64,000 nucleotides of DNA, from contig JBAZKL010000001.1 in assembly GCA_041650835.1 (NCBI GenBank), positions 701,617 to 765,616 of the forward strand, given 5' to 3'. Below are positions 42,001 through 63,000 of the stretch, piece after piece; positions within the stretch are counted from its first letter, which is position 1; each line of letters opens with the position of its first letter. A model generated the notes under the pieces. The model was not told where the DNA came from and searched no databases. It worked only from the letters and a program-made list of their open reading frames with translations. The translations under genes were made by a program, and so were the position numbers. The DNA comes from Candidatus Omnitrophota bacterium. GTDB taxonomy: Bacteria; Omnitrophota; Gorgyraeia; Gygaellales; Profunditerraquicolaceae.

Positions 42001-45000
42001 CTTAGCGAGGGGCGAAGTGCAAACAGGAGCAGATGGATCTTTGGCGGGAGGAAAAATAATGATCATGACAGAAGATACAGGGGTAATAGACTTCAGCGCC
42101 GTATCGAATGCTACTTCAACGTAATCGGTGTTTTCATTCTTGACCTTAATGCGTTTGTGATGATCGGCGAAATAAGCTCTCACCAGCTTATAGATCCTGT
42201 CCGCGCATCCGGCATCAGAAATTACCAGTGGCCGTGAGACCTGAAGGCAGGATTCGAAAAACCCAAGTAATACAGATTTCGCGATACCCTTACGCTGCTG
42301 ATTCTCATAAATATCGATATTATCAATAATCAATTCCTTATCAGTAAAATGCGCGTAAAAAGTTCCCGCGGAACGGCCGTCTTTAAAGATACGGTAGCGC
42401 CTTCCATAATCCAGCTTAAATGTCAGGATGAAATTATTATGCTTGATTTCAAGGCCGGGGATATCGATGAACATCCGGGGAGCAGCCGCCAGGCCGCCGT
42501 CTGTAACCGCAGAAGAAGCAGTGTTTCTCACCCAAAAGAGATTTGAAGAATAGCCGTTTATAGCTATAGTATCGCTATCTGTTAAACAATATCCCAAGTC
42601 ACAAGGCAATTTTGTATACAACGCGTGGAGGATATGCGGAGGCGTTCTATAGCCCCGGGACGTCCACTTCTTTACCTGGTATTCTACCGGAGTGATATAA
42701 ATACGCTGCCATCCCTGACAGGCGGCATATTTCTGGAACGCGCGCAGAAGCTGTTTCGGCCAATCAGAGAATTGCTGTTTCATCTCCACAGGAAGCAATT
42801 TATACATATCGCTCTGTATCGAGGAAATTACTTTCCCGGCGGCATTCTTCTCAACCAAAAGGTAGGCAAACGCGCTATAGGTATGCTCCCAAAACATCTT
42901 ATTCTCCCTCATGCCGCGCACTGCTTCTTTCATCCTGCCGCTTTTAGGCAAAAGTATGAACCTGATCTGTCTTTTTTCTCTTCCCGGGACAACCCGCGCC
43001 TCTAATTCTCCCGCGTATATCTCTTCTGAATAATCATGCCTTTCTTGATGCGTGATCCTTAATAGCTCTTCAAGCGGCACATACCTGGCCAGCAAAGAAA
43101 GGAAAACCGGTTGCAAAATACCGCTTTTTCTGACACTGCCTAAAAAGGCGATAATTTCATTGATTGAACGCTGCTTATCTCCTTGATCATGCATATTAAG
43201 ATCTTTAACTGCGGACTCCAAGCCCAAGGCCTTACAATAACTAAGAATAACCGCCAGATCAGCCAAATCTATCCTGGACTGCAACAAAGTATCGATCACG
43301 CCCTCATCAGAGCCGGATCGTAATTGTTCATATATAATCCTCAAATCAACGGGTTTAAAATTATATACCGGATTATGGGCTTTCATAATACGGCAAAAAG
43401 CGCCAGAAGCTTGCGTATCCTCCTGGTTGTTTGATATTATTTCAGCTAAAATGCCGGCGCTCTGCCAGGGAAGACCATGTTTTTCTCTGAACATTATTGC
43501 TTTTCTTAAAAAAACTTTATCCACAGAGGCGTCCCTCAGCAATGCTTCCGCGAAATACCCTTTTTCCGTATTATGTAAAAGCTGGTATCTATCCCGCAAC
43601 CCGCAATGGTCATTACCCGTAAAATAATCACCTGCCATAACACAATCAGCTAAATAAATACCCGGGATGCCCTCTCTAAGCAGGGGCTCAACCAACTCTT
43701 TTCTTCCTCCCGCCGCGGCAACAGCTTTTGCAAGAGAAGTAATATCAAAAACACCCAATATACCTTTCTTCTTTTGATCGTTGAGATAATCAACCGTAGA
43801 GAGCACGAGAGGATCGTCGTGCTTAAGAAGCAAATAAGCTTCCACAAACGAATGGATATAGCTCTTAGGAAAGCCACTCGCCTGAAAAGAAGGCAATGCG
43901 CATTGCAGGGCGCTTATTCCAAAAGCTTCCGCCGCGACTTTAAGGCTGGTTAATTCTTCATTCGAATCAGGCCTGATCTCTCCGATCAAATCGATCAGCG
44001 CGAAGGTACGCTCATCCAATCCGATCTGCGATATCACCCTGTCCAAACGCGCCTCCTGATACAACGGCCTATTCCGGTAGTTCTTAAGCTCTCTTAACGC
44101 GGTTTTTACGTCGTTCAAAGAAAGCTTCCCTGCCCCTGATTGCGTTTGGCCGCTCATGATCGGGGATGAACCCAAGTTCCGGGCAAATACGGCATGATAG
44201 GGAGTAGGATACCCCTGCCAATCATAGATCATTTTTTCATTAATGCCCTGTTCAAAACCGGCATTAACGAAGTAACTCTTTACTAATGCAATTCTTTCTC
44301 TCTTGTTCGATGCGGCTTGCCAGGGGAGGCTTCTTTCTTGAAGGGCAGACCGATGGTCAAAGACTACGGCAAGACAAGCACCGGGCATAAGCACTCGCTT
44401 GGCTTCCATAAAAAGCTCACGGGCAAGCTTAACGTAAGCGATCCCATTGACCATGAGAATACCCGCTATGCTTCTCTCGGGGAAATGTAATGACGGATCA
44501 GTATTTAAATCCTGAAGAATATAGCCGCCATTTAAACTTTTATTAGCTTTCAGTTCTAATTCATTTAATCCTATCCCGGTAATCTTACCGTTAAGCGTTC
44601 TGGGGAAATAAGTATTGGCTCCGCTCATGAGATCAAGATACACCGGTTCAATAACGCCCGTCCCGCGGGGAAGGATATTAAACAATGCCGCCCTTATCGC
44701 TTCTGACTGATCGGTATTCATATACCCTAAATGATTAGGCGTTTCCCAGGAAGAGATCATCTTTTGCTCATCCCCTGAAACGCTATCACCTGTTCCCTTA
44801 TCCCCATTAATATCTCTGTCTTTGCTGCTAAGAGAAACATCAAAAAGCCTGGTCGCCTGCGGAGATGATGATCGTCCTTTCCCTTTCTTATAATACCCTT
44901 CAAATTTCTCTACAGCAGGGCCTATTCTCCTGAAATAAAGCTCCCAGTCACCGGTATCAACATCCAGAATAAACCTCTCCAAAGATCCCCGATATACAAA

Positions 45001-48000
45001 GCCGTATTTACTAAAGACCTTGCTCAAAACCGGGAGCGCCTTTAAAGCGCACGGGACAACCTCGAAGGCGTTCCTTCCGGAAATAAGCTCGCCCATAAGG
45101 ACATTGATCATAAGATAAATATAATCATTGCCCCGCCAGATTTGATCTAAGTAAACTCTTAACACACGCAATTTAGCTTCCGAGAACAGGTCCTCGAAAT
45201 ACAGGAATCCGGACTGGCTCTTATCAGAAGCGTTGAATAATATAAGCTTATAATAAGTGGAATACGCTCCGGCATTACGCAAGCGTTCGATAACCACATC
45301 GATTTCCGCCTTTTGCGGCAGTATCCTGATAGTACCAAGCTGCCCCTCTACCAAGTCTCCGGCATCAGCAAGGCGTATTTTCCATTCATAATCAGGACCC
45401 AGAAGATCATCGGACAATGCCGATCCAGCCTTATTATCTTTAGCGATCGTGTCGGCAAAATCCCGCAACTTTTGATGCTGCTTTTGCGTAATCTTCTTTT
45501 GTATCTTACTGAGGTCTTCCATGATAAGCCTGACGGGATCCTCGGCAAGCTCAGGGAATACCGCGATAATACGCAACAACAGTTCTTCCCTTTGACGGAT
45601 TGCCGCCGCGCTCAAATCGAGGAAAAGCATATCGCGCCAAATATCATAGGCGCGCAGCCATTCCCCCTCACTTACCGCTGCTTCGAATAATGCAAACCAA
45701 GCCTGCTCAAAGTCTCTAACGGCAAAACCGAGAGCACCCAGGTCTTCATACATTTCAACGGTGAGTCCCTGACAGGCAGCAAGCCTGTCTTCTCCCTCAG
45801 AAGCAAGCAATCCCCGAAAAAGCCTCAACCATGTGTGCAGTTTGCGTATCTTATCCTCCGGAGAAGAAAGTGACGGGAAATATTCAAAGCCTTTTTTACG
45901 CGCCTCATCCCACCTGCCTTCTTCAATAAGCGACTGCCAGTTGCTGAATGCTTCCTCCACCCGCGACTGCGCCAACGAACTGCCGGCAGAAGTAGACGTC
46001 CGCGCGCAGACCAGCGCCCCCAAACCATCTCCCCTTGCATGTAAAGATCTATAAAGCCCTTTTTGACCTGACTTACTGGCGGCAATCGCGGAAGAACTCC
46101 CCAAAGAAACCGCGGCAAAAATATCCGCCTCCACTTGAGCTCTTTCCGCAAAATCGATATTTGCATCTTCATATAAGGTTTCCCCGCTGATCTCATGTAT
46201 ATCCAAGGCGCTAAAACCATACCCCGCTTTCAAAGCATCATTCAAGAACGCGATAATACAAGCCACCTTTTGTTCAAAAAAGACCTCCTGTTCCCCAAGG
46301 GACTTTTGCCGGTCACGGAATTGCTTTATTATTCTGGCTGTTCTGTACTTATAAATAGTTTCCTGTATAATTCCTTCCGGTCCGGGGGCGATCAATGCTT
46401 TTTGCAAAATGATCTTTAATTTCGCTAAGGAATACTCCTGGCTTAAAGACTCAACCAACACTATAATTCCTTCATTATCTAAAATTAGCCCTTCCTCTAT
46501 TAATTTAATCGCCGCATGCAAAGCCAGGGACACTTGATTGTCTTCCCGGGTCTTAGGGTCGATTTCCGGAATGAAAATATGCCCGTAGAGCCGCGGCCAA
46601 AAGCTTACAAAAGGCCTTAATGCGGAAAATTTCTCCGGGAGATCGTTATAAAAGCCCAATACCGTATTGTCCCTTTCGCACCGCCGCGCGTAGGCATTAC
46701 GGCTCAACCAGAATTTGTATTTATTTTGTATCAATTCCAAAGCCTCTCCCATTCTAAGAATATCATACCAGTTTGGTCTCCCGTTTTTAAATGTTCCCGG
46801 TTCTCGAGAAGCTGCTGGAGCCGCACGGATTCTTTCCTTCAGCACCACAGGATTTATATAAGGGACGTAGGCTGCCTGTCTATCCTGTCGCCATATTTGA
46901 AGATCGCCTTCCGGCTCATATCTAATAATGCTATACTCTATTGTTATCTGTTGTTTTTCAATGGCCTCGACCGTCAGATCAAACAGCTGCTCCCTTGAAG
47001 GATCATTCAGCGTGTTTGCTAAAATAAACACACTGCTGATAAATTCTTTCTTACTGATATCCAAGATCACTTCATCCCGGCAAGGAGCCGGCCATGTGGA
47101 AGCATCTTGAGATCCGACTCCGGTATCACGACAAGTCGCCGTAGCCGTATATTCTCCGTACGTAATCTTTGCTTCCCAAATTGTCTCCGCTAACGCCTTG
47201 ACCTGCGAATATTCAACCGGCGAAGATGCGCTGTCAGGGATCAACCGGTAAATTTTTCTATTATCCTTGCCTTTTTCAACAACTATATTTTTATTTTCTC
47301 CGGCTAACTGCTTTAAATCCAAACGCCGCTGGCTTGCATTTACCCAGGGGATCTGAGGGTTCTCCCGCAAAAGCCTCGTATAAAGAAACACAGTAATAAA
47401 CCCGTGTTCTTTTAAATAGGATCTTACTAAAGCAATCCTCTGTTCGGGATAACTTCCCGGACGATAGATCGCTGAAGACGCGCCGGCTAAAGTTCCTTCC
47501 CGTAAAGAATCTTCCAGCGGCGTTTCTTCTCCCCGGGTGTTCACGAACGAAAAACCGTCAGCCGCGTAGAATATTGTCCCTTTTCTCCAGCCTTGATGGT
47601 CCAAAAGCCTCCATATATCAAATAGGACCGACATTATGGAGCGCGCGTGGATAACGGGGACCGCCGGTTCACCCAATAAGCCACCTTGAGGATTACAAGA
47701 AATAATAAGGAGATTGCTTAGTTTTTGCTCCCGCGATAGATCATGGATCAAGCCTTTTAATGACCCGTTTTTGATCGTATGGTTGCCTTCTGCGGTAAAA
47801 CCGTGAATATAATATGCCGGCCCCCGGTATCTGAATAATTTCTTTTGTTTCTTGTCGCACAAGAATATATCCGCTTGAGGATTAAACGGCATCATATATT
47901 TATCGTGTAGCTTCGCCGTCAAACCAGGCAATTTCTTCCAAAAGAAGACGCCCGCCCCGATGGCAAGAAAAGCGGTTAACAAAACCTGGTAATCCTCAAA

Positions 48001-51000
48001 ATATCCTGTAACGGTATAGAAAAACGCTATAAGCACCGCCGCCATATATAGAGACGTGCTTATGCTCCCTCTTTCATGCTTCACAACTGTCAGGAAAGAA
48101 TACGGTATTTCCTCTATTTTCCATGGCCGCAGTGAAGACCCGCTCTGATTACTGTTTACCTGAGGAGTTATCGAGTAAAAGCCATCGTTAGGGGATTCGG
48201 GAACAATCTCCTCTTTATAGAGCGCCACGAAGACTTCCCTCAGCTTTCTCTGGACCGCGATCCTGGAGCGTTCGTCAAAGAATTTACCATCCGCTATGGC
48301 GGCATCCCGGTCCCAAAGGCGCTCCATAAAGATCAAGCTGCCCAACAGGTCTTTGCCGCTTACGCCTTCAGCCACAAAGATCTCATATACCCTGCCGGAT
48401 TGAGAGAAGCCCTGGCGGACCTTGATGAATTGTTTCTCTAAGCGCTCGTCATTCAATCTCAAACCCGCAAAGACATAAAAGCTGTATTGCACACGGATAC
48501 CGAAAGGATTAACGACCGTATAATCAGCGGCATTAACGGCGTTTTCCGCTATTTTTAAACTCTTTTCAACCAAATCCAAGCCCGCGGATCTCCGGCTTTT
48601 TCCGGTACATTCTTCATAGTTATGCACCGCCGCGTAATTCTGGCTGCCGACGTGGCCGTCATCATTCGCCTGCAGGCAAACAACGGCAGCCGCCCCGTCA
48701 ATGCTTGCCAACAACCTGTTATTTTTATACCCTAAGCTTGCTCCTTGAGCGAGAAGATCTACCGGAAGAACAAAATCCGCGTCAAAGGCGATCTCTATGC
48801 TTTTCGAGCTTTTAATTTTCTTCGAAAGCCCTGAAGCCGCGGAAGAAAAAGGGTTATTGCCTTTACCGCAGGCCGCCCGGCTAAACGCAATAGCTGCGGC
48901 GACAGGATCCGCGGACTGGGTGATGGCCGCGTTCACTAAAACGCCATTGCATCCCATTTTCAATATTTGGCGGACATGCCGCGGCTCTCCGATCCCGCAT
49001 TCACCGATCAATTGAATACCCGGACGTATTTTTCTGGCTAAGGCGATAACCGCCTTCACTTTATCTGTTTCTTCAGGGAGCCCCAAACCTCTATGGGAAC
49101 CAGGCCGCGTTAATTCAACGCGTAACGCGATAACCTGGCTGATGTCCAACAATTCCGCCAGCATCTCCGCGAGAATTTCTTTGCCTATAAGGGGAATTAT
49201 CCTGATATTCCTGTTAAGCGCGACCAGCGCCTTGACGGCGTTAAACATTTCCGCGTTATTCGTCATTACATCTCTATTTCTTACCTCCAGCTTTACGTAA
49301 GGGGTTTTTGAGAAATACACCCCGACTCCCGCCAGCATTATTGCGTCTTCCTGCGTCATGGCTTTACTGGTATTGACCACCGCGAGAAATTTCCTTGTCT
49401 GCCGCCGGGCCGAAAGCTTCTGGTGAATCAAATCAACAAAAGGAATACGCAATGCTTTCGGGAGTGCCGTTAAACTTCCTTTTTCACCCAGGGTAACCAA
49501 ACCGCTATTTTCATCAAAGACGATTTCCCGCAACATTCTACGGGCATTGTCCAAAGTAGTGCATTCCTTCAAGAATTCTATGCCCCCCGGCAGAAAGATC
49601 AGGAACTGTGTCCTTGACCTTACGGTCAATTCGCTTGCGACTTCAGGCGAAAGAGAGATAATACACGATTCATCGAAAGAATGCGTAATCGCCGTGGGGG
49701 CGATCAAGGGGAATAATTCCTGGCCGGAAATCACTATTTTCCTTTTTTCTACTAGCGGTGAAGCCGCGCGCGCGGACAAAACTCCTTCAGATATCGTTAA
49801 GCGGAAAATCCTTGGCTGACCGTACATCAAAGGAACAAACCAGATAGGATGCGAATAAACATGGGCCCTATCCATCTTTGACTCGACCATTGCGCCTCCG
49901 AGATATATCCCGCAGTGAGCGACAAATCCCGACGCATGAATATAAGCTACTAAATCATTCTTTTTCGCATCGCGCAAATTGATCTCAGGGAAGATCGCGC
50001 GTAGTTTTTCATATGAGAATAAAGCGTGCAGATCAACCCCTAATTTCCTCGTCGCATAAGCGATACAATCCTCTAATCCATTTTTTGTTCTTTCAACTAT
50101 TTGGTACCCCGGCAAACGCCCGATATCATCATATAAACCAAGGCTAAATAAACGGGAAATTTCTTTACTTACTCGCTTTCTGAATTTATCGCTGCCATGG
50201 AAACAAACACCCGGTTTTAGTAACGGGAACCCGGCAGCTTGCAAAGCTGAAGACGTATTGTCTGCTAATCCAGGCGTGCGCCTTTGCCCTGAGGCCAGCG
50301 GCGAAGCCGCGCGGGGCGCTGCCGCTTTCGCCCGAACCCTTATCTCTGCCTGAGCGGAACCCTCACCTTGACGGCCATTTTCTTTGTCCAGGAACAATAA
50401 AACAGGGTCAACGTATCCGGCTTTCTCCATTACCCTTAAAACAGGGGCTTGTTTTACGTATTTAATGTCATTCGCGTTAATACCGTATTGCCGATTTAAT
50501 ATCCTTATTGCCCTTACCAGGCTGGTAATAAAGCTGTCCCTGATCCTTAACTGGCTGCCGTTACAGCGTATGCTTGGGCCTAGAATAAAGTCCATCGTGC
50601 CAGGGTTAAAAGCATCCCCGGCGGGATCATAGAGGGCGCTGTATTTCAGACAATGCTTGAGTATCTCCTGATGATCACTTATTCCATTATGCAAAACAAC
50701 CATTTTGTGCAGCGCTTCAAGCGTGGCGCGGTTGACAACAGATTCCCCCTCAATATATCCTCCCCCATACGTAAATATAATATCGTTCAACCTGCGCGTC
50801 ACAAAAGAATCGATACCCTTGCCCATCAAAAATCCGCAAGAAGCGTTGATCTCCGTTGTTTTTCCATACGTGCATAGGGGTGTTAATTGGATGGTTTTGG
50901 TATAGACATACGGCGAGGGCATACCCGGCTTGTTATATTCCGACAGTTTCCCATACTTAAGATCATATTCATACCCCCAGATATGGGCCCAATATGCGCG

Positions 51001-54000
51001 GCGTTTTCCGAACGACTGGATATGGCAGGTAAAAGCCATATCAAAGATCCCATCTTCTAAATTAATTCTGTAAATTATATCCTCATTGCCATTTTTACCA
51101 AAATGACTGTTTAAATAACTGTTCAGGGTTTCGTAACTCAACCAGGGATCACGGGAATTACCCGCAGCGTTAATCTTATTCGGCGAAGATGATTGTAAAC
51201 TATTATTTATAACATAATCGAAAGTTACGTCATTCTCTTCATATCTAAACCGCATAAACTCATCAGGGCTTATATTTTTTATACGCTTGTTTCGAGTTGT
51301 ATTCCGACGCCATTCTAGATAAAAAAGCCTTGAATCATTATCCGCAACGACTCTAATTATTACAACATTGTCGTGGAGGCCCCTATAGAGAGAGCAATCT
51401 AACCCGGCAAGGATCACGAAATCGATGCTCCCGGCCTTAAGAGCCTTATTAATGTTTGATTCCAGCTTCATGGCATCTATGCCGACCCCATACCTGCAAT
51501 ACCTGTCTCTTTCTATGCGGCGGATGGAATGCAGCCGGTAAAGATCATAAATCAGTTTTGCGACATAGCTCTTACCAACTCCGGAGTCGCCTTCTATAAT
51601 CAACAACAGTTTTCCTCTTTGTAATGCGGCATCAATAACTTTCTTAACCGCTTCCAGCGCCTTAGCTTGATGCGGTAATTTCTTAAAAGGGGGCAATCTA
51701 TGAATAATCGGCGATGATCCATGATTAACCCCTATCCTGCCTCTCCAGAGCATCGAGTTATCGACTTGACCGGCGCGAAAATATTTCTTGAGCCAGTGAA
51801 ATATCGCCTCGCTGCTGCTGCAGATGGTCCTTGCCTCAAACACCCATCCCGGGTATTCCTTTTCCAGGAAAGAAGCGGCATTCTTAAAGGTAAGCGACAT
51901 TAACCCTTTGCCCCTGAGGCTATCGATCACAAGATCAGACCGGCCGAGTGAAATATCATGCAGGTATATGAGCTTTTTACCGGAAAACGCGCTTACCTCC
52001 AGGACAAATTCATAGTCTTCTATATCAATTTCGCAGCGTAATATTTTGTTGAGCCCGAATTTTATGCGCCACATTCTGTCAATAACAGCGGCGTAATAAA
52101 CCCCGTTTTCCGAGCGTCGTATAAACAGGACAGCTGCAAATTCTTTTAAGCGTCCGGCAAGCATAAGATCTAAGAACCATCTCCAACTGAATATTTGCTT
52201 TGCCTGCTTACGCACGTCTTTATCTGTGCCCTGAAAAACGAAAGTAAGTACCGGCTTATCATCTATCTCCCGGAACGCGCTTAATAGATCCTTCGCCAGG
52301 AAAACTTGCGCGCGCACCAACTCATTTTCCCCCTCTCCCCTCTCGCTCTTGGAGAGCGCCAGCGGCGAGGCGGCTGGTAAAGATGAAGATACTCTCACGC
52401 TTCCCCGGGAAAACCCCGTCACGGCGGCAGCGCGCACAAAATCGGCGAACGATCCTTCCGCATGGGCCGGTATTTTTATTTCCTGTTTAAGGAAGAAATC
52501 GTGGTACGCTCCCGCCAGCGTGCGGATATGATGATTTGCCTCATCCAAGGCAAGCGCGCGCGCGAAATACCGCAAGAACTCCTCCTCCTGCATACGCATA
52601 AGATACAGCTCAGCCAGGGCGATGTGCCATACGGGATTGAATGGCTGATACTGCAAGGTATCCTCGATAAACCACTCTTTCATCTCCCCTATTTCCACAT
52701 TCGCCGATTCCATCGAACCTATGACGGAAAGAAGCAGGTGCCTTTGCGCAATATTCGCGGGGTCATCTCTTAAATCCTGCAAGACGATTTGACTGAACTG
52801 CCGTAATTCCAAAGCGTCCATCTCTGAAATTTTCCCTTGCTGTTTAAGGATATGCTCCCACTGCATCCCGGCAGAAAGACGATGTTCCTTGAGGTATCCC
52901 CGGTAGTCGATAAAACTATAGAATCCAAGTTGATACATCTCTTCGCGTATTGCGACCACCGACTGCAAAGCGTCCCGCCCACCCGTAACCACAAGATCAT
53001 CAATGAGCGCGATACAACAACCCATCTCCGAGCCACACGCGTGCCCATACCTTTGCCTCAATGAGTCGATGACACGGTAAAGATACGTTGAGATCAGCTC
53101 ATCAGCCAGTATTTCAAGGACATCTTCTCTATAGATGCCTTTTTGCCGGATATCCATATCATTCAACCGATGCACAAACTTTTCCACTTCAGTATCCGCT
53201 ATCGGCAAAAGTTGACGCACTCCGTCGTAGGCAAGCATAGACCCATAACGCTGATCGACGCGCGCCCGATCAGCGACTCTATATCCGAATTCGTTTATTT
53301 CTTTTGTTGATATATCCTTCAAGAAAAGGCCGCGATCATTGGCAAAGGCATAATTGGTATAGCGGCTGCCGGGAGAAATGAACACTCCCGGTGTACGGTT
53401 CGACGAATAATTAAAAGGCAGAAGGTAAAAAAGGAGCAGCGATTCCACGAACTTAGGCATAAGCGAATCGGGAGTGGATAAAATAATATTATAGGATGGA
53501 TAGAGCCCTTCATTCATCAAGACGCGGTGCTTCTTCAAGATACCGTCTATATCCTTGTAGCCTTTATCCATAAGGAACGGTTGGCTATTCTCGTCAAGGC
53601 CAAAGCCTATGTGATAGAACCCGTTTTTCACCACTCTCCCTGTAAAATCCTTTAAGGCCGCGGGATCATCGGGCAGAGTATTTAAATGTGTCTGTTCAAT
53701 GGCGAAACTAAAGTACCTGCCGAGATCGTACTGTTCGATGAATGAGATGACCGCTTCGGCGTGCGCCCGGGAAAGAAGAAAATTTTCGTCCCAGAATCTT
53801 ACGGTGATCCTGCGCGCTTTAAGTGCCTCCAGTTGAGGCGATTCTCTCCTTGACCGCAAAGATTCGGCCAATGATGCTAACGAAATCAGAGGGGGGCCCA
53901 CAGGAAGATGATTACGAAGCATACCAAGAATGCGTTCTTGTAAATGGCTTACTTCGCAAAGCGTGACGCTCCTGCTCCCCCCAAACATCAGGGACGCGTT

Positions 54001-57000
54001 GCATATCTTGCATGCACGGTTGCACCCGTAAGACGTTACGATATTGTAATTACGCGCGCTTTGCTCATTGGCAGGAGCGGTCTCTACCGGAGGAATAAGA
54101 ACCTTGCGGTACTCAGCGGGAGTAACAAAATCATTGCATATGAGGCGATCGTGCAGGCGCAGTAAACTCGCTTCAGGGAATTTCCCGTGCGTTCCCCGCA
54201 AGAAACTGATCAAACAGGGCAAAGTTTCCACCCCCGCGCCGGAAAGCAACGCTAAACGCGGATACTCGTTGATAAAAGGCAGCAGCTTTAAAAGCCCCCT
54301 GGTGACCGTAGGGCCTCCTAATACAATAACAGAAGAGATACCCAGCGTTTTAATTTCCCGTATAAGAGCATTCAATTCTTCTAAGTTATAATCATGGAAA
54401 GAACATCCTACGACATCGTAACCGTGTTCTGCGATATTCTCAGCAACCGCGCGCATACTCTCAGAGGAATTCATCCGCGCCTCCGAGGCAAATCCGTGCT
54501 CACGGAGGCTTTCTTTCAGTATCCTGCAGGCGTAATATGCGGGTTTATTGAAAGCATATAAAAGAATTCCCGGTTCACTAGGCAACATTTCTGATGAAGG
54601 CATGCGCAGCTGCCTATCCGGCATAAGCCCGCTTTCCATGATCAAAGCAAGAGCCGCATTATCAACCGACATGCCGCTCAATCGAAATACCCTGTTCTGA
54701 TGGTCGAAAACTTGCCCGGAGGATATCGATGCGCCTAAAGAATATTCTTCTCCGGCCTTTGCGCGCCCCAGCTTTTGGACGAGATCGATCTTTTCCTGCA
54801 AACGGCTGATTTCAAGACGGAAATCATGTTTTGAAGCTTTCAGCAGCGAGAGAGCTTTTTTAAAACTGAACAAACGCTCGTATATTTCCACCAGTGAAGC
54901 TATCGTATGGTAATCTTCAGGGTCTTGAGCCAGAATGATCTCCAGGCTGGCAAGAGACCTATCCAAAGTATCTACCGGCGAACCTGCCACGTTATTACGC
55001 TCCAATGCCTTCAGCACGTTTTCATTAAGCCTCCACTTCACATAAAAACGGAATGGATCCTTACCGGAAAGTACCTGCTCGACTGTATCGACGAACAAAC
55101 AATAGCTTCTGCGCAAGCCATCTTTTCTTGCCCCGGCAAGAAATTCTTTCGGGTCAATCGTTTTTAAGTTATGGGAACCTTTCGAAATCGGCGAGGCGAG
55201 GGAATTTTTAACAGCTCCGAACGCAAATGAAAAAAGCCAAACCTGGTATCCATGAATATCAATTCCTGAAACATAGATAAAGTCCGCCTCACTGCAACCG
55301 CTAAAATTGGCCTTCCCGGCCAAATTCAATAGTTTCGCCTGACTTCTTACATGCGCCAATTCATAACCGCCAAATATAAGCAAACGGCATTTCGGCCAAT
55401 TCCCGGCCGCACCGATGACCCACTCATGCAAGGCTCCGTAAGTCGGGCCGATATTGCCGGCTACAGCGTCAATCGTGGCAGTGATTTCCTGCGGCAGCCC
55501 CAGGGTCTGTTTATCGTCGCGCCCTATTTCACGCTGAATGAATTCCACTTTTCCCTGCCAGGAATAACCGTTAACGCTCAAAATTTCTTTTGCCCTCTCA
55601 AGCGCGTTATATGACCTTTCTACCGCATAAACAAACTTCGCTCCCAACCGAAGCGCGACAAGGCTTAAAATGCCATATCCCGCTCCGATATCGGCTACAA
55701 CTTTGTCAGTCCAGTCATGCCCAAGCATGAGCGCGATAATCGGAACGGTAAAACCATTGATAAACGGATTGCTTTTTGTTCCTTTCCTGATTGGGATCGC
55801 GGATTGCCCGGCTTGGCCCCACTGCGGGTCATTCTCGGGGTAAAAAATAATTCCCTCTCCCCCTTCCTGCAATAATTCTTCCCCTAATAAATCTTTCAAC
55901 CGTTGCAGATGCTTAAGCGAGCGATATTTTAAGAAAGTCAACGCCCCTAACTGAACAAAGGTGCCCTCCCTATCCCATTCGATAGACACATGCGCGCTCT
56001 CCGCATTCGACGGGATCACCAATAAGGCATGCAATTCATCGTTTCCGGCAAATTTTAAGAATACAAACGGAGCAAGCTGTACAGATTTTTCTCCCGCGCC
56101 CAACACCGGTTTATTGATTTCCGCGCGGGTATCCACAATCGATACTATCCCCGCGCTTATTTCTTTAATACCGAGCCTCTCCTTAACAGCTTTCCCGGTC
56201 GCCCGCGGTTCTTGAGATTCAACGGAAACGGTTTTATTTTCCGGTCCAAGAGGAGAGGCACTTTCTTTCTCTCGGGATTTCGCGGCAGCAGCAAGAGCCT
56301 CTTCCGCTTTCCCCCGTATTTGTTCATGACAAAATTCATTCTGCCTGGCCCTTTCTAAAAGGAGAAGAGCATTTTGGCTTTTCCGTTGGGTGGCGGAAAT
56401 AACCGCGCATGCTAACATCTTCCAATACTTTATCGCGGCCTGTTTTATTTTATGAGAAAGCCCGGGGACAACCAGTATTTGCTCTTCCACGTACTTCATT
56501 ACAAAAGGGTCTCCGCCAGCGGCCCGGGCCGCAAGCTTCTGCATCGTATATTCCCTCTCTGAAGTATCATGCCAGTAATAATCCTCTTTCCCATCAAAAT
56601 ACGCCAGGAAATGCGGAGTGATCTGAAGCTGATTTTTCTCTGATATAATGGCGGCCAGCGCCAGATACGCGGTTGCCACCCGGAATTCTCGTTTACCTTC
56701 TCCGGTCACTCTATCTATGAAAGCCTTGAGCCTCTTCTCTAACGCCGCGAGCGACGCAGTATTACCGTATCCGGCCGCATATATCAACAAGCTGATACTC
56801 TTATCTAACGTTGAATCGTATACAAAATACTTCCGGGGCGATTCGTCGTCTATAAACCGCTCAAGCATTTCCACTATTCTTTGATCACCCAGGCTCAATA
56901 AAACATACAGCGCGCTCCTGGCGCTATCTCCTAAACACAGTTTATCCTCAACAGATAATGAAAAGAGTTCAGGGATAAGACGGCTCAGAGTGCCTACGGC

Positions 57001-60000
57001 AACCTGATCGCCCTTATTGGCTAACTTAGTTATTTTTTCTATTACCCTGGTTTTCCGGTCAGAGGATAAAGGGCTCATGCGGTTATGAATGATCTTCTCG
57101 GTAACCGCACAGAAATAATCAATGAATAATCCTTCCAATTGCTCCGTAATAACCGGGTATCCCTCTTTGATCTCCTGCCAGGTCATCCGCTGAGCATCCG
57201 CCCAGGATTTATGGTCGCGGCAATTATAAAGCAACTGCCTGTATTCATTGAACACTATTACTCCTAATGCCTGGGCAAGATTATCCCGGAATCTATCCGC
57301 CAGCGCATCCGCTAATTCGCGGGAGGAAAATACAATAACCAGGGTGTTTCCTTCGAACATGGAAGAGAAAACAAACGCAGGGACTGCTTTTTCAGGCAGG
57401 GAATGCGGCACTATAAAATGCACACCGCATCCTTCGTACACAGGCAGAAGTTGATCAAAAACATCAAGAGAAGCAAACTTTTCCTCTTTAACCTGTTTAA
57501 TTATTCCCGAGCATTCATCTAACGTTAAACCCCCGTATATTCCAATAGAATAATATCCCGGCCTTATGAAAGATAACTCTTCGGCCGGCCGTTCTAAGGA
57601 TCCCCGGGTTTTCCCCGGAATTACTTCTGTTTGCGGGCTTATATCTATTGTCGGGGCTAAACGGACTTCATACGTTATCCCATCTATTTCCGAAAGAGCC
57701 TTATGTATATCGGCCTCATATTCCCGGGGACTTTCCCGTAAACAGGAAGGCTGGAGGATAAATTCATACGACAAAAACCCAGGATCCTTCTGCGGCGGAG
57801 CCAGCCTGAACATACTGATACCCAGGTCAGACAGTGCCGCAATTGTCAGGGTTATAAGCCCCGGATCATCTTCGGCTAATATTGAAAGCTCAAAATTCGG
57901 CGCGGGGGAAGCAATAACGGATTCTAATTGGTAATACCTGAAATGTTCTTTGCTTAAAAATAATCCCGCGATCAACTTAACCAGCTCTTCGGGAGAATTA
58001 AGCTGGATCAGGATCTGCGTGAACAAAGCCCCTTCTCTATCTCGTGCCGGAGGTTGCTCATAGATCTGCCATTTCAGAAGCGCTTTGACGACTACGCGCG
58101 CGGAATCCGAGGCAACCATCATTCTTTTACCAAAAGTCTTAAGCCGGTAGAAATTACGATAATCGATCATAGACCGGGGATCCCAGCTTGAGATGATCCA
58201 AGACATCCCTTCCCTGGCGGCAGCAGAACCCGGGAAAAGAACACGCGCGTCTTTATGATCCATATCCGGTAATAAGGCAAGCGCCAATTTATATTTACCC
58301 ATCTCAATACTTTCATAGATCCGGGGCAGTTCAGTGGATCTTTCTTCATTATTACGGCAGGAGAGCTTTAACTCTTTTAAAACACCCGCGATCACTTGAA
58401 CAACCCAGTCTCTCGGGGGGACATATTCCTGCAGGAACGAAGCAAACTTTTGCTTTTCTCCTTCGGTTAATTCGCCGAGTTTTTTCGGCACATATATATC
58501 GCGGGACCTTGTTGCGGCTCCCCCATCTTCCAATGCCTGCTCTTTTTTCTTAATGCCGGTTTTCGCTAAATATATGCCTTCGATTAAACGGCCCGGCAAA
58601 TCCTTGAGAAATCCGGATATTTCCCCGGCAATCTCCTGACGCCGCCTGTCAAACATGTCGCCTAAGTGAGGGATATCCGAATAACGGGCTATCTCGTCGG
58701 GGACATTGATCGTAGAGATCCTTGTGTAAAGACGCTTCATAATTTCAAGATCGGCGTTCGTGAGGTCGCGCCAATAACCGCTCGTAGTATCTAAAGAGTG
58801 CCCTTCCGCGGGGTTTCGGCCCGGGACAGGGACTATTTCGCTTAACTGCGGATTATTATAGATAAACCATTGGTTCGCCCGCGCCCTATTCCTGTTATGC
58901 TTGCCGAGAGGGACTAATTCACTGCACTCAAAAGCTTCCTGCACATCATCTAACGTGAATACGGACACGCTCCCTACAGTTTTGACCTTAAAATAGATCC
59001 TATCGGAATTCTTCTCTACTTTTTCAAGAGTAATTTCTATACCTGTTTTTTCTCTGACATTGTCGATAGTAACGATCAAAGAATCGTTTTCTTTCATCCT
59101 GAAATTACCGCGGGAAAGATTTCCGCGTTGATGTTTAAGCTTTGCGTTTATGCCGTAAGGGCTTTTTATAAAAGAACAATTTACTTCATCCGTTGGCTGA
59201 ATAAACCAGGAACTTAAAATATTGAATATTTCCCGGCCGCTCCTGTCAATAACCGCCTGCTCTTTTGTGCCGAAATAAAGGATTACCTGCTCAGAGCTGC
59301 CGATACCTATTGTTTTTTCTCCGCTGACTACCGCGTACTCCTCTAAGTTACGCAGCCGGGCTGATGAACGTTCCCGGTATATTTTAGGGCGTAAGAAATC
59401 ATATGCCCCCTCCAGCGCAGACGAACTTACCCGGTTGTTCCCGCACTCCAGCGGGGAGGAAGTATTACTCAAATACGTCAATAACTTTTCCCATCTGCAA
59501 ATTACCTCCCGCGCCTGCACGCCCTGATCTTCATCCTCATAGAGAGCGCCGCATACGCACGTGCCTCGCCATGCGCCTTTTGCCACTTTAACGCTTTGGA
59601 GTATGCGCATACCGGTATCAGCGGCTTGCCGTCTTTCAGGACTGATAATTGCGGCCGCCTTTGGGGTGATGATCAAAGCTTTATCCGCCTGGGTCAATGC
59701 AAGCGGCAACCCTCTGCCCGCGTGACCGCCTTTCCCGAAACTAAAACGCTCACCGGATCTTATCGCTTCGCTTATAGGCACCGTCTGTTGGTTATCTCCC
59801 TTCACAAACCCTCTCCCATTATCAGAAAGGCTGATCATTACGCATCTGCCGCCTTCGAACGCCGCTTCATACCTCAGGGCCAATCCTATCCCTTCCGGGA
59901 CGTGCTGAATAATATTACCTATGCAATAACGCAGGAATCCTTTTTCTCTCGCGCTTTTTGTTATTGCGTCGTTCTTTTCCCATAATAATGACATCGCCTG

Positions 60001-63000
60001 AGGGACGTAACCTATAGACTCATAAAGCGCCTCACAAGAATCATAGTTTAAATCCGGCCCGCTTATGACGTGAGCAGAAATACCTTCCTCTATACTTAAC
60101 GCCTTAAAGGCTTTCACAAAATCTCTCCAGTCAGCATTATCACTGCCATAGTAAGGCATTACCTTCTTTAAATGTATTTCACTCATCAATTGAATAAAAG
60201 CCCCTACAGGGGAGGCAGCGCTGAGATCATCCGTTGCGCGCCGGCCAAAGAAACTCATTTGATCGTTTCGCGGAGGGGAAAAAGAATTGTAAATATTAAA
60301 GTTACTGAGCACTTGCTTCAATAAAGATGAGTTATTACCTGGCCCAAAGACTAAATACGCCAGAGGTGATGTAGCGCGTTTTCGTATGGAAATATCTTTC
60401 AAAGGTATATTCCTTAAATCATAGACAAAATCGTCAAAAGGCGCATTGAACGGTTCAAAACCATCTGCCAGATAAAAACCCTCTCCGGCCTTGCCTTCTA
60501 TAACATAAAGACTATCCTTGCCCAAAACATCCCGCGCAAATACTTTTGCCAGCGATGACAACGCTTTACCTATCCCCCTATATTCGTAGCGCAACCGGTT
60601 TTTAAATGCATGGATAGCAAAGTCAGCCTGTACCAAAGGTATCGTGCGTTCATCAAAAGAAAGGTCTCTCCAACGGTTATATGCCTGGACGTAGATATGC
60701 CCGAAATAAGCGCTCCTATCGGCGTGCCTGAACATAAAACCGAACTGCGCGGATGCTCCATCTTCAGCATTAATTTTTCTTACCCCCTGAGGATAGATCA
60801 GGCTGAATATCAACCTTTCTGCCTCTTCAGTAACCAGGACAACTTCACCGCTTTTCTGTTTCAGCGCAGCTGCTAAAACAGCTTGGGGGCGAGCAGGAGA
60901 AGCAAAATGGCTTACTCCTCGTATTCGATCAGCTACCGGTGAGGCCGAACGCAATGATCCCCCTGAAACAGCCGCAAACGCTTCATTCCATCCCGCGTGG
61001 CTCCGGAGCCAGGAATATTCTTCACCGGGCACGCCTGCTTCTCGCATCGCCTCAAGGATGCCGACCTTAGAACCGAACATGAGCGATCTCACTATATCGA
61101 TCCTGCGGTATCGTTTTACCGGGCGGACTTCTGCTATGTCCCGCGGATTGCCGTTGACAACTTCCATCTTCTCTCCCGCGCTGACCATTAACATAGGCAG
61201 CTTCTCGATATCGAAGAAAAGTATTACGGGCTTGGGATTCCTGATCGCGCCTATAAGCTTCTTATATACTTCAAATTCAGGGGCGGAAAAAATCGCGTCA
61301 TTGTTCTCACAGGCGACATCGCTCCAATAATAGTTTTCAGTGGTCTCAACAAGCGTAAACAAGACGCGGTCGCGCCGGCGCGGGTTGAACAACTGCCCCT
61401 TATTACAACGCAGCGCGTAATCAATAAGGCTGGTTGTCGTGCCCCGGCACAATCCGTATTCAAATATTTCATTGAGAAAATCCCCGAAGCACAACTGTCC
61501 TTGAGAAATGATATTCTTACGGACCCACACAACCTGATCGAGCAGGCAGACCTCAAAGGCCTCGTGTATCCTGTCGATGTTCGCTAAGAGGAACGCCAGG
61601 CACTTCATTTTTCCCTGATGATGCAGACGCTTTGCCTGGTCAACGATCAGGCTCAGGTCGCGATCAGGGATATCAGTCATCTTGTCGACCGGCAATTGCT
61701 TTTCTATACGGGAAAGGTGGCCCTTGATAAAGCTGCCGTATGTTTGTTTTTCCGGCCCCACATCGAGTACGCAAGGATATATTTTATCCCGTAAACCACG
61801 CGGTATTTGACACAGGCATCTTTCTAATTCGCGGACAAGGCCCCTTCTATTAATTGGTGAGTTGCCACGCGGTTTACGGGCGACCCAGGCGGCGCAATTA
61901 TAAAAATTAACTTCCCGCTCGACATGAAAACCATATTTTTGCTCAATAAGGTCCATATGAGCGCACATAGCCCTGTATTTATCCTCCTCATCGGTCTTAT
62001 ATCCGGAGGCGATGAACAGGCGCGCCTCAGGGAAATAGGGAATAAGCTTCATGCTGTCGGCATTCGTTACCGAATACATCCCCCAGGAACCTATATTTGA
62101 AACAAGGGCGGTTTCCCGGTCCATTTGACGGGGCGAAAGAGACCTTGCGATCCCCTCGGGATCTTTCAAGTCGCCGTTAAGTAAACGGTAAGCGATACCC
62201 TCCTTAAAATCATTGATCTTCATTTGCAGCCGCGCGACTTCCAGCAAAGTACTATCGATCTCAATTGCATCAACGCTGCAATTTAAGCGAAGGGCCGTTA
62301 AGGACAATTCCGCGCGGCCGGCCCCGCAATCAATTACATGCATATCTCTAACGCTATGGAGCATGGCAAAAAGCGCCAGAGACGTATATGTGGGAAAATA
62401 ATAAAACATCTTATGAGCGCTGATATTTACCAATCGCATGGAATTAGTTTTCAACAAAACCCTCAGATCAGAGCCCAGGAATCCAGAATAAATACGCTCG
62501 TCAATGAATATCAAATTATCAAACCTGATAAATCCTGAATAATAATCCGTGCCGCCTGTTTCCTTGACCATTACCCATTCTCTTTCATAAGCATATGGCC
62601 CGAATTGAAAAGTTTTAAGGGTCCGATAGATATCAAAACCCAGTCTTTCAAGCTTCAGATTGATCTCACCGGCAAGCTCCTTACTATAATCCCGGGATAA
62701 TCTGAACGGCGAGGCCGACATTTGAGGCAACCGCCATTCCTTCTTATCAAATATGACTTTGATCGGTTTTGCCATGCCGTTTTCCAACTCATGAATTGCA
62801 GACTCATAGATAGCCGCCATTAACTTAATACCGATACTATGGTCGCTTACCGGCGATATCGACCTTTCATTGATAGGCCTTACATCAGAAGATCCCGGGG
62901 TTGTTAAAATCCTCAGGAATTCTCTCATCGGCGCGCCGTCATCTTCATCACTGACCGGAATATTTTCAACCGGAGAAAATTCTTGCAGCATCCCTTTATT

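Follow-up and report, generated by a model that had tools for sequence, protein, structure and literature searches.

Does the very long protein encoded by this stretch of Candidatus Omnitrophota DNA (64,000 nucleotides, positions 701,617 to 765,616 of contig JBAZKL010000001.1 in assembly GCA_041650835.1; hereafter the window) contain a genuine class B radical S-adenosylmethionine (SAM) enzyme, in which a B12-binding domain is joined to a radical SAM core with the CxxxCxxC cluster motif? A first-pass annotation had proposed such a module around positions 53300-54480, pointing to two peptides. Overall, the alignments and predicted fold described here make it likely, at the level of domain architecture, that positions 52774-54969 of the minus strand encode a complete, and probably active, class B radical SAM cassette that is fused in-frame into a giant multi-enzyme protein.

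The reading frame that hosts the cassette was found in a six-frame scan to be a single stop-free frame of 21,333 codons that is open at both ends. The 'giant protein' of the first-pass annotation is therefore real and, because neither a start nor a stop lies inside the 64-kb window, the actual gene must be longer than 21,333 codons. Both of the peptides that had drawn attention to the region were located in this open reading frame (ORF). Specifically, YDVVGCSFHDY maps to positions 54420-54388 of the minus strand (ORF residue 3194) and SYGCNRACKICNAS to positions 54033-53992 of the same strand (ORF residue 3323); they share one frame and lie 129 residues apart (about 120 had been estimated). 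The GC content of the module, overall and at third codon positions (GC3), equals the ORF average, and a chimeric assembly or a recent transfer of the module was rejected, as the composition shows no sign of either. A plus-strand reading of 53300-54480 was also rejected, given the many stops in it. A 107-codon ORF with a TTG start does lie on the plus strand at 54068-54391, antisense to the region coding for the B12-binding domain, and was most likely left open by chance inside the giant gene. No second copy of the module was found inside the 21,333-residue ORF.

With respect to the cluster motif, exactly one CxxxCxxC occurs in the 21,333 residues (0.031 are expected from the cysteine frequency of 1.13%), and 60 of 2,000 shuffles of the ORF held at least one. 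By itself, this occurrence is weak evidence and suggestive only. The same 3% of shuffles at this protein length would favor a reading in which no radical SAM domain exists, the region being a chance CxxxCxxC next to a Rossmann-like stretch or, alternatively, a MiaB-type methylthiotransferase, as weak NCBIfam matches to MtaB in some relatives might hint. Single-sequence searches reached little: a word-indexed search of 5.8 billion proteins with the module returned zero matches, and phmmer of the module against PDB sequences gave only a spurious 45-residue match to 1iv0, a family profile being needed to reach the class B enzyme TokK.

The module does, however, belong to a family, and it is the family that speaks against chance. 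An exhaustive phmmer search of 1.84 billion proteins (cluster representatives at 50% identity) identified 35 relatives at E ≤ 1e-3, 31 of which contain CxxxCxxC; nothing in this set exceeds 33% identity to the module. The top match, UCD15759.1 (P0001; E 4e-32, 33% identity), is a protein of 6,905 residues from a 1.5-Mb Candidatus Omnitrophota genome, and most of the others are proteins of ~1,000 residues. Of the nearest relatives, the three with a named source all come from Candidatus Omnitrophota. When ten relatives were scanned with Pfam, Radical_SAM was detected in all ten and B12-binding in eight. Specifically, the P0001 cassette scored 39 bits for B12-binding, which is above the cut-off, and 26.6 bits for Radical_SAM over model positions 4-152; other relatives scored up to 55.8 bits with PF04055. 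The relatives also match many B12-binding radical SAM models of NCBIfam, all far under their cut-offs.

An alignment of 12 homologous sequences (A1) was then compared with proteins of established kind. The columns of the Cys triad are invariant in A1, and they are accompanied by a series of further motifs (DD(D/N)F, YFxF, G(T/L)D, KGY, NxIL(T/S)TP and ESL). As the three Cys columns are invariant in 12 homologues and the upstream segment aligns to B12-binding domains, the pair of motifs lies far beyond chance. Against canonical B12-binding radical SAM proteins (those annotated with both PF04055 and PF02310, or taken from loci L001-L005), hhalign of A1 gave a probability of 99.94% and an E of 2.4e-36 across 336 columns, a span that runs from the first Rossmann strand through helix 5 of the barrel and so covers both domains. 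Among PDB sequences, the A1 profile matched TokK (7kdx, 1.8e-7), the unnamed radical SAM chain 9ccb, CysS (9n1b), OxsB (5ul2) and TsrM (6wte). A single-sequence AlphaFold model of the module was unusable (predicted local distance difference test score, pLDDT, 39) and was superseded by an AlphaFold2 (AF2) model built on A1 (pLDDT 67.6; predicted template modeling score, pTM, 0.65), in which a five-strand Rossmann domain is followed by a partial triosephosphate isomerase (TIM) barrel. The ten best Foldseek matches to this model in the PDB are OxsB, AprD4, CysS and TokK (E 1.5e-10 to 6.5e-8). A gap of five orders of magnitude follows, and then come isolated B12 domains, those of methylmalonyl-CoA mutase among them, and unrelated Rossmann folds.

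Taken together, the hhalign result over both domains, the phmmer match to a homologous cassette and the concordant fold search leave the chance or MiaB-like reading with a negligible probability, and we consider it effectively refuted. Its MiaB-type form is further disfavored by the N-terminal cysteines C20, C61 and C124 (module numbering), which the family does not conserve. As cysteines outside the CxxxCxxC triad are unconserved throughout the module, there is neither an auxiliary-cluster triad nor a MiaB-like N-terminal cluster site. The same profile and structural evidence bears out the class-B-like module of the first-pass annotation and supports its identification as a Rossmann domain of cobalamin-binding type followed by a CxxxCxxC radical SAM core, to the extent that alignment and modeling can define an architecture.

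The positions expected to serve the cluster and SAM could be placed along the alignment (Table 1). In the alignments, the canonical CPxxCxFC stretch falls on the CxxxCxxC of the module, which sits in the first barrel loop. In the AF2 model, barrel strands at module residues 179-182, 260-264, 292-300, 323-329 and 362-366 alternate with helices, and the alternation over residues 179-390 fits a partial (beta/alpha)6 TIM-barrel fold at moderate confidence. A GGE motif for SAM binding had been anticipated at first pass. No literal GGE is present; the aligned position reads D-E-N (ORF 3404-3406), with D266 and F269 at least 90% conserved in A1, and the stretch VRFWDENF around it is identical in the canonical B12-binding radical SAM genes of L001-L006. 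The absence of a literal GGE is normal for class B, because the same position reads ADE in OxsB, DSE in TsrM and DAN in TokK (PMC9204698). Further along the barrel, Asp3469 (D331) is the predicted acidic equivalent of the ribose motif and Lys3479 (Lys341) the predicted SAM-contacting basic residue after helix 4a, G329 being invariant and D331, K341 and G342 at least 90% conserved in A1. The strand-5 equivalent N-I-I-L-S-T-P (ORF 3504-3510) contributes the invariant N366 and P372, with E381 at least 90% conserved. All four candidate SAM-binding equivalents (D-E-N, Asp3469, Lys3479 and N-I-I-L-S-T-P) are thus conserved in the family by alignment, and a strand-6 motif was not confidently placed. 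A helical insertion follows the Cys loop (module helices 212-224, 236-244 and 250-255 in the AF2 model); the free-standing relatives have it too, P0001 carries a far shorter version, and canonical B12-binding radical SAM proteins lack it.

In terms of cobalamin binding, about 50 residues separate the barrel from the upstream Rossmann domain, whose strands in the AF2 model (module residues 6-11, 33-38, 56-62, 86-89 and 111-113) alternate with helices. Class B enzymes bind cobalamin base-off and His-off, and contact it through GxSx[N/R/Y] after strand 3, GG on strand 4 and GE on helix 5 (PMC9204698). By alignment, the module carries candidate equivalents of all three. For the first, S62 is invariant in A1, and the family profile places the A-L-S-C-Y-V-W of TokK on this invariant Ser column; the residues of the window were matched to that TokK stretch indirectly, via A1. 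The GG (ORF 3228-3229), a motif that on strand 4 leaves space for the dimethylbenzimidazole tail, has G91 invariant and G90 and P92 at least 90% conserved in A1, and in the GE equivalent G-A-G-V-E (ORF 3254-3258) G116 is invariant. No DxHxxG His-on motif was seen in the module. The His at ORF residue 3202 (positions 54394-54396, minus strand) aligns with Asn186 of OxsB, Arg69 of TsrM and Tyr74 of TokK, that is, with the residue nearest the lower face of the cobalamin, a position occupied by varied residues among relatives.

Several observations weigh against a functional class B enzyme. The Pfam searches recommended at first pass returned both expected families, each below threshold: PF02310 (B12-binding) at E 2.6e-6 and 27.7 bits, under the cut-off of 32.1, and PF04055 (Radical_SAM) at E 0.039 and 14.6 bits (29.5 would be required), over model positions 1-36 only. 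The domains themselves are nonetheless supported by the profile-level evidence above. No NCBIfam model came near its cut-off for the module, the best being TIGR04013 (MJ_1487 family; B12-binding plus radical SAM) at E 1.8e-4 and 20.5 bits against 251, and the module could not be assigned through NCBIfam to a characterized class B subfamily (HpnR, BchE, PhpK, TsrM, the C-methyltransferases of ribosomally synthesized and post-translationally modified peptides (RiPPs) or the MJ_0865 enzyme that modifies methyl-coenzyme M reductase (MCR)). The Cys loop of the module carries the substitutions R186→Y, P189→N and F194→I, the last replacing the usual aromatic residue before the third Cys. The AF2 model is of moderate confidence only, with low pLDDT in the Cys loop, and AprD4 (6fd2), which has the same architecture, is its second and third best fold match (E 8e-10). 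The first-pass annotation would have abandoned the module for want of a Radical_SAM match or of a GGE; with that match sub-threshold and a literal GGE absent, both signs would wrongly reject the finding.

The Cys-loop changes, the sub-threshold scores and the extreme divergence of the module (at most 33% identity within the 1.84 billion representatives) could be read as marks of a remnant that has lost catalysis and persists for scaffolding or binding. Set against this are the Cys triad and every aligned SAM-contact equivalent (D266, F269, D331, K341, N366 and E381), which are intact. Of 49 positions with at least 90% conservation among relatives, the module retains 31, these residues included, and most of its changes at the others are conservative. 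Conservation of the same residues in P0001, at only 26-33% identity, indicates purifying selection on them, and we regard a dead remnant as very unlikely.

The fold match to AprD4 bears on a different alternative, in which the architecture is correctly read and cobalamin is not used. AprD4 is not known to use cobalamin. The Rossmann domain of the module would then persist, as in AprD4, as a relic with a structural or substrate-binding part to play, and the chemistry would be non-methylating (dehydration, cyclization or rearrangement), with [4Fe-4S] and SAM alone. Throughout the clade the His of canonical 'GGxHxT' is missing and PF02310 scores are weak, and no NCBIfam methyltransferase model was approached, all of which would fit such an enzyme. 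The retained equivalents of the three motifs that contact cobalamin in OxsB, TsrM and TokK do not, and neither do the best PDB profile matches, since TokK, CysS, OxsB and TsrM (listed with the unnamed 9ccb) are described in PMC9204698 and in PDB titles as cobalamin-dependent or B12-binding. The NCBI name of one relative, P0004, is 'cobalamin-dependent protein', by annotation only. On this balance, we judge a cobalamin-free enzyme to be unlikely, and well short of the class B reading.

If the cassette does act as a class B enzyme, its reaction would begin with the reduced [4Fe-4S] cluster cleaving SAM to give a 5'-deoxyadenosyl radical, which would abstract hydrogen from an unactivated carbon or phosphorus center. 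Cobalamin, held base-off and His-off, might then deliver a methyl group or mediate a rearrangement; methylation is the commonest outcome among class B enzymes. C-methyltransferase activity and self-modification of the giant protein, both raised at first pass, are not supported as such. The substrate would presumably be a metabolite, an intermediate of lipid or glycan type, or a protein that neighboring tethered domains handle.

Table 1. Positions of the cassette, of its motifs and of other features of the giant reading frame (window positions unless a locus is named)
Feature	ORF residues	Position	Strand	Basis
Giant multi-enzyme gene fragment carrying the module		1..63999	-	Six-frame scan; Pfam domains spread along the frame
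Full cassette	~3011-3742	52774..54969	-	HMM of free-standing relatives; blastp against P0001
Cobalamin-binding-type Rossmann domain	~3143-3268	54196..54573	-	PF02310; A1 profile to TokK/9ccb/CysS/OxsB/TsrM; AF2
G-C-S-F-H-D-Y, equivalent of the GxSx cobalamin motif, loop after Rossmann strand 3	3198-3204	54388..54408	-	A1; TokK alignment
V-I-V-L-G-G-P-T-V-T, Rossmann strand 4 with GG motif	3224-3233	54301..54330	-	A1; canonical 'GGpH.T'
S-G-A-G-V-E-T-L-P, equivalent of GE (canonical GEGE), Rossmann helix 5	3253-3261	54217..54243	-	A1; canonical 'rGEGe'
Radical SAM core, partial (beta/alpha) TIM barrel	~3317-3548	53356..54051	-	hhalign; AF2; Foldseek
C-N-R-A-C-K-I-C, predicted [4Fe-4S] ligands Cys3326, Cys3330, Cys3333		54001..54024	-	Sole CxxxCxxC; invariant in 12 homologues
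Helical insertion of ~47 residues between Cys loop and strand 2		53815..53955	-	A1; hhalign gap; AF2
I-T-V-R-F-W-D-E-N-F, strand 2 and D-E-N, GGE equivalent (predicted SAM amino group contact)		53779..53808	-	A1
Y-H-I-G-F-G-L-D-E-N ... M-D-K-G-Y, strand 4, predicted ribose-motif Asp, then Lys		53557..53616	-	A1; canonical 'FG.ESG...iLk.ikK'
Y-N-I-I-L-S-T-P-D-S-L-M-P-K-F-V-E, strand 5, GXIXGXXE equivalent		53443..53493	-	A1; canonical 'sfIiGlPgEt'
C-terminal cassette domain, family-specific, leading into a TPR-like helical region	~3549-3742	52774..53355	-	HMM
PrmA/MTS-like methyltransferase, ~300 residues upstream of the module	2764-2827	55519-55710	-	Pfam
ThiG (thiazole synthase), ~1,200 residues downstream of the module	4860-5043	48871-49422	-	Pfam, E 7e-15
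Methyltransf_11, weak match	6469-6544		-	Pfam
CheR methyltransferase		23140-23622	-	Pfam
CoaB-type DFP domain, two matched stretches		22411-22977	-	Pfam, E 6e-77
Membrane-spanning-like cluster 1	14080-14347	20959-21762	-	Hydrophobicity scan; overlaps Rce1-like CAAX protease domain (PF02517, E 7e-15)
Methyltransf_31/12/23 region		12235-12681	-	Pfam
NAD(P)HX dehydratase (Carb_kinase)		10978-11760	-	Pfam, E 3e-44
APH-type kinase		10132-10728	-	Pfam
Cytidylyltransferase		9187-9624	-	Pfam
Membrane-spanning-like cluster 2	19167-19486	5542-6501	-	Hydrophobicity scan
TPP-dependent enzymes beside free-standing relatives		L009/L010 7822-9789; L022 4-873; L023 742-2709; L024 534-2489

The extent of the cassette was defined by its relatives. 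A hidden Markov model (HMM) of nine free-standing relatives, 1,019 positions in length, aligns to ORF residues 3011-3076 (model positions 20-84, weakly, E 0.0017) and 3138-3742 (237-844, E 7e-44), and blastp of the window ORF against the 6,905 residues of P0001 matched only ORF 3012-3706 (26% identity, E 4e-45). This collinearity, together with the limits of the blastp match, indicates that the cassette corresponds to nearly a whole gene of ~1,000 residues. Judged by sequence, an N-terminal part resembling tetratricopeptide repeats (TPR) is followed in this unit by the B12-binding domain, then the radical SAM core, then a C-terminal domain. Two very long proteins that otherwise do not resemble each other contain the unit as a fusion. 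The C-terminal domain aligns to positions ~650-844 of the free-standing family HMM, including 'SF.DY', and AF2 confidence there is low to moderate.

The free-standing clade itself consists of TPR, B12-binding and radical SAM proteins of ~1,000 residues, with which the cassette is collinear over ~730 residues at 20-24% identity; examples are MFH1406900.1 ('cobalamin-dependent protein') and MFA5389767.1 ('radical SAM protein'), both from Candidatus Omnitrophota, and 'TPR repeat proteins' from JGI. Features present in both cassette and clade are the helical insertion that follows the Cys loop, a C-terminal 'SF.DY' and the series 'DD(D/N)F', 'YFxF', 'G(T/L)D', 'KGY', 'NxI(L)(T/S)TP' and 'ES(L)', whereas only the window copy of this comparison is fused inside a giant ORF. 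No curated NCBIfam model matched the clade, and no characterized member of it was found. The closest relative, P0001 (UCD15759.1; CP070797.1; 26-33% identity over ~700 residues), likewise sits inside a very long multi-domain protein, keeps the Cys triad and the barrel motifs, and has a B12-binding domain that passes the Pfam cut-off. Nothing else in P0001 resembles the window ORF at the blastp level, and the companion domains differ (Amidohydro_2 in P0001, methyltransferase and ThiG in the window protein). NCBI names P0001 only as an 'amidohydrolase family protein'. Its gene and a second very long gene, which continues past the end of the locus, are transcribed divergently (L008, CP070797.1, 1-9750 and 10001-30718); in the 7,587-residue product of the second gene, HEAT and TPR repeats accompany a polysaccharide deacetylase domain.

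Scans of GTDB species genomes and JGI metagenomes revealed no orthologous giant gene and, among GTDB species representatives and the same metagenomes, no close relative of the module (at most 31% identity). They yielded just ordinary B12-binding radical SAM genes of ~480 residues, 21-31% identical and carrying the 'VRFWDENF' stretch.

In the four free-standing genes from outside Omnitrophota that were examined, an orthologous enzyme of ~650 residues dependent on thiamine pyrophosphate (TPP) was found nearby, immediately upstream at three loci and one gene away in L024. These neighbors are 45-70% identical to one another and belong to the acetolactate synthase (ALS)/oxalyl-CoA decarboxylase/2-hydroxyacyl-CoA lyase superfamily, no NCBIfam cut-off being reached. 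From their arrangement, the radical SAM and TPP-enzyme genes look like a conserved, uncharacterized gene pair; no homologue of the TPP enzyme was found in the window ORF. One of the free-standing relatives (P0043; L009, 1-22513) is clustered with a methylmalonyl-CoA mutase and its B12 subunit, an acyl-CoA dehydrogenase, four enoyl-CoA hydratases, two family III CoA-transferases, short-chain dehydrogenases, three TPP enzymes and a thiamine-binding protein. Judged from these annotations, the cluster looks like an anaerobic pathway of acyl-CoA degradation or modification. At the Candidatus Omnitrophota locus of P0004 (L007, 1-11437; GCA_043812735.1), the gene is one of several unrelated metabolic genes in a row on one strand, the others coding for an amidohydrolase, a GlmS-like protein, a TP_methylase, an unusually long TAL_FSA of 871 residues, a 679-residue protein without Pfam match and a phosphoribosyltransferase. 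The N-termini of the 871- and 679-residue proteins are alike and resemble signal peptides.

Beyond the cassette, the window protein conforms to the pattern of giant multi-enzyme proteins, in being a single ORF with diverse tiled enzyme domains and some transmembrane-like clusters. Pfam detected, in addition to the domains of Table 1, HATPase_c, Rce1-like, PIG-L, GT2 and HD domains along the ORF. The five SAM methyltransferase folds claimed at first pass were not recovered in full, as Pfam detects only four such regions, including a weak one. Several of the embedded domains (ThiG, DFP, NAD(P)HX dehydratase, the APH-type kinase and the cytidylyltransferase) are cofactor enzymes of a housekeeping type. 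Ordinary CoaBC proteins of ~400 residues share 47-53% identity with the DFP domain, and the scan of the ORF gave no match to the Flavoprotein/CoaC family (PF02441). A homologue search with the stretch containing CheR and DFP, aimed at orthologous giant proteins, returned only ordinary CoaBC proteins.

With respect to topology, a Kyte-Doolittle scan (19-residue window, mean ≥ 1.8) located two clusters of membrane-spanning-like segments and one isolated segment at ORF residue 8349, and none in ORF residues 1-8348, the stretch that holds the module along with SAM-dependent and thiamine-pathway domains. For radical SAM chemistry, an oxygen-sensitive cluster has to be supplied with SAM and a low-potential reductant. 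Because of these requirements and of the lack of membrane-spanning-like segments, we infer that ORF residues 1-8348, and with them the module, probably sit in the cytoplasm.

This location bears on a disputed question, namely which side, cytoplasm or prey, the enzyme-rich parts of giant proteins in Omnitrophota are exposed to. Most giant-protein domains were predicted to be extracellular in one study, which called those predictions unreliable (West-Roberts et al., bioRxiv 10.1101/2023.11.21.568195), and the enzyme content was argued in a 2026 preprint to face the cytoplasm, anchored in the inner membrane (bioRxiv 10.64898/2026.06.07.730766). An oxygen-sensitive enzyme that requires SAM and reductant is hard to square with an extracellular location. 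A second implication is that giant proteins can conceal real cofactor-dependent enzymes under Pfam thresholds, as the window copy is missed at gathering thresholds, and domain censuses of giant proteins would therefore undercount. The analysis also points to an unnamed B12-type radical SAM clade with a conserved TPP-enzyme partner, which may merit characterization. A bolder proposal, which we think rather unlikely as a whole, would join these points: a rare, uncharacterized B12-type radical SAM clade (~35 representatives) with the helical insertion after the Cys loop and a TPP-enzyme neighbor in four members might catalyze cobalamin-dependent radical chemistry of a new kind on an intermediate handed from one tethered domain to another, and the cassette might mark more than 8,000 residues as cytoplasmic. 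If true, such a marker would argue against a mainly extracellular, prey-degrading model for these regions of the giant proteins, and either new chemistry or use as a topology marker would raise the interest of the cassette somewhat.

Among known systems, TokK (7kdx), CysS (9n1b), OxsB (5ul2) and TsrM (6wte) have the same order of domains as the module, with the Rossmann cobalamin domain first and then the partial TIM barrel that bears CxxxCxxC. As in the solved class B enzymes, the GxSx, GG and GE motifs are present and DxHxxG is absent, and a non-canonical GGE position is common to the module (D-E-N) and TokK (D-A-N). Foldseek alignments to solved class B chains show 11-14% identity, and the module differs from them in the ~47-residue helical insertion, in the Ile that replaces the aromatic residue before the third Cys, in its C-terminal domain and in the His at the position of OxsB Asn186, TsrM Arg69 and TokK Tyr74. 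It also lies within a polypeptide of more than 21,000 residues, whereas the solved class B proteins are free enzymes of 450-750 residues. The radical SAM diol dehydratase AprD4 (6fd2) resembles the module in combining a Rossmann-like N-terminal domain with a radical SAM barrel; the module, in contrast, keeps the equivalents of the cobalamin contacts.

At the level of the whole protein, the closest parallels are the giant proteins of Omnitrophota ('Archaeovorin'-type or multi-enzyme class), which likewise consist of a giant single ORF with tiled methyltransferase, glycosyltransferase, HATPase_c, HD and radical SAM domains. Radical_SAM is among the 20 most frequent domains of these proteins, together with methyltransferases, and is glossed as 'SAM-dependent methyltransferase' (West-Roberts et al., bioRxiv 10.1101/2023.11.21.568195); PF04055 occurs in 90 very long proteins in the 2026 preprint (bioRxiv 10.64898/2026.06.07.730766). 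The main texts of both preprints, as searched, list PF04055 by name only and make no mention of a B12-binding domain or of class B architecture. As Radical_SAM has already been published for Omnitrophota giant proteins, its pairing with methyltransferases is not unusual, contrary to what had been supposed at first pass. The module is a highly divergent radical SAM cassette in which a known kind of domain is met in a known kind of giant protein.

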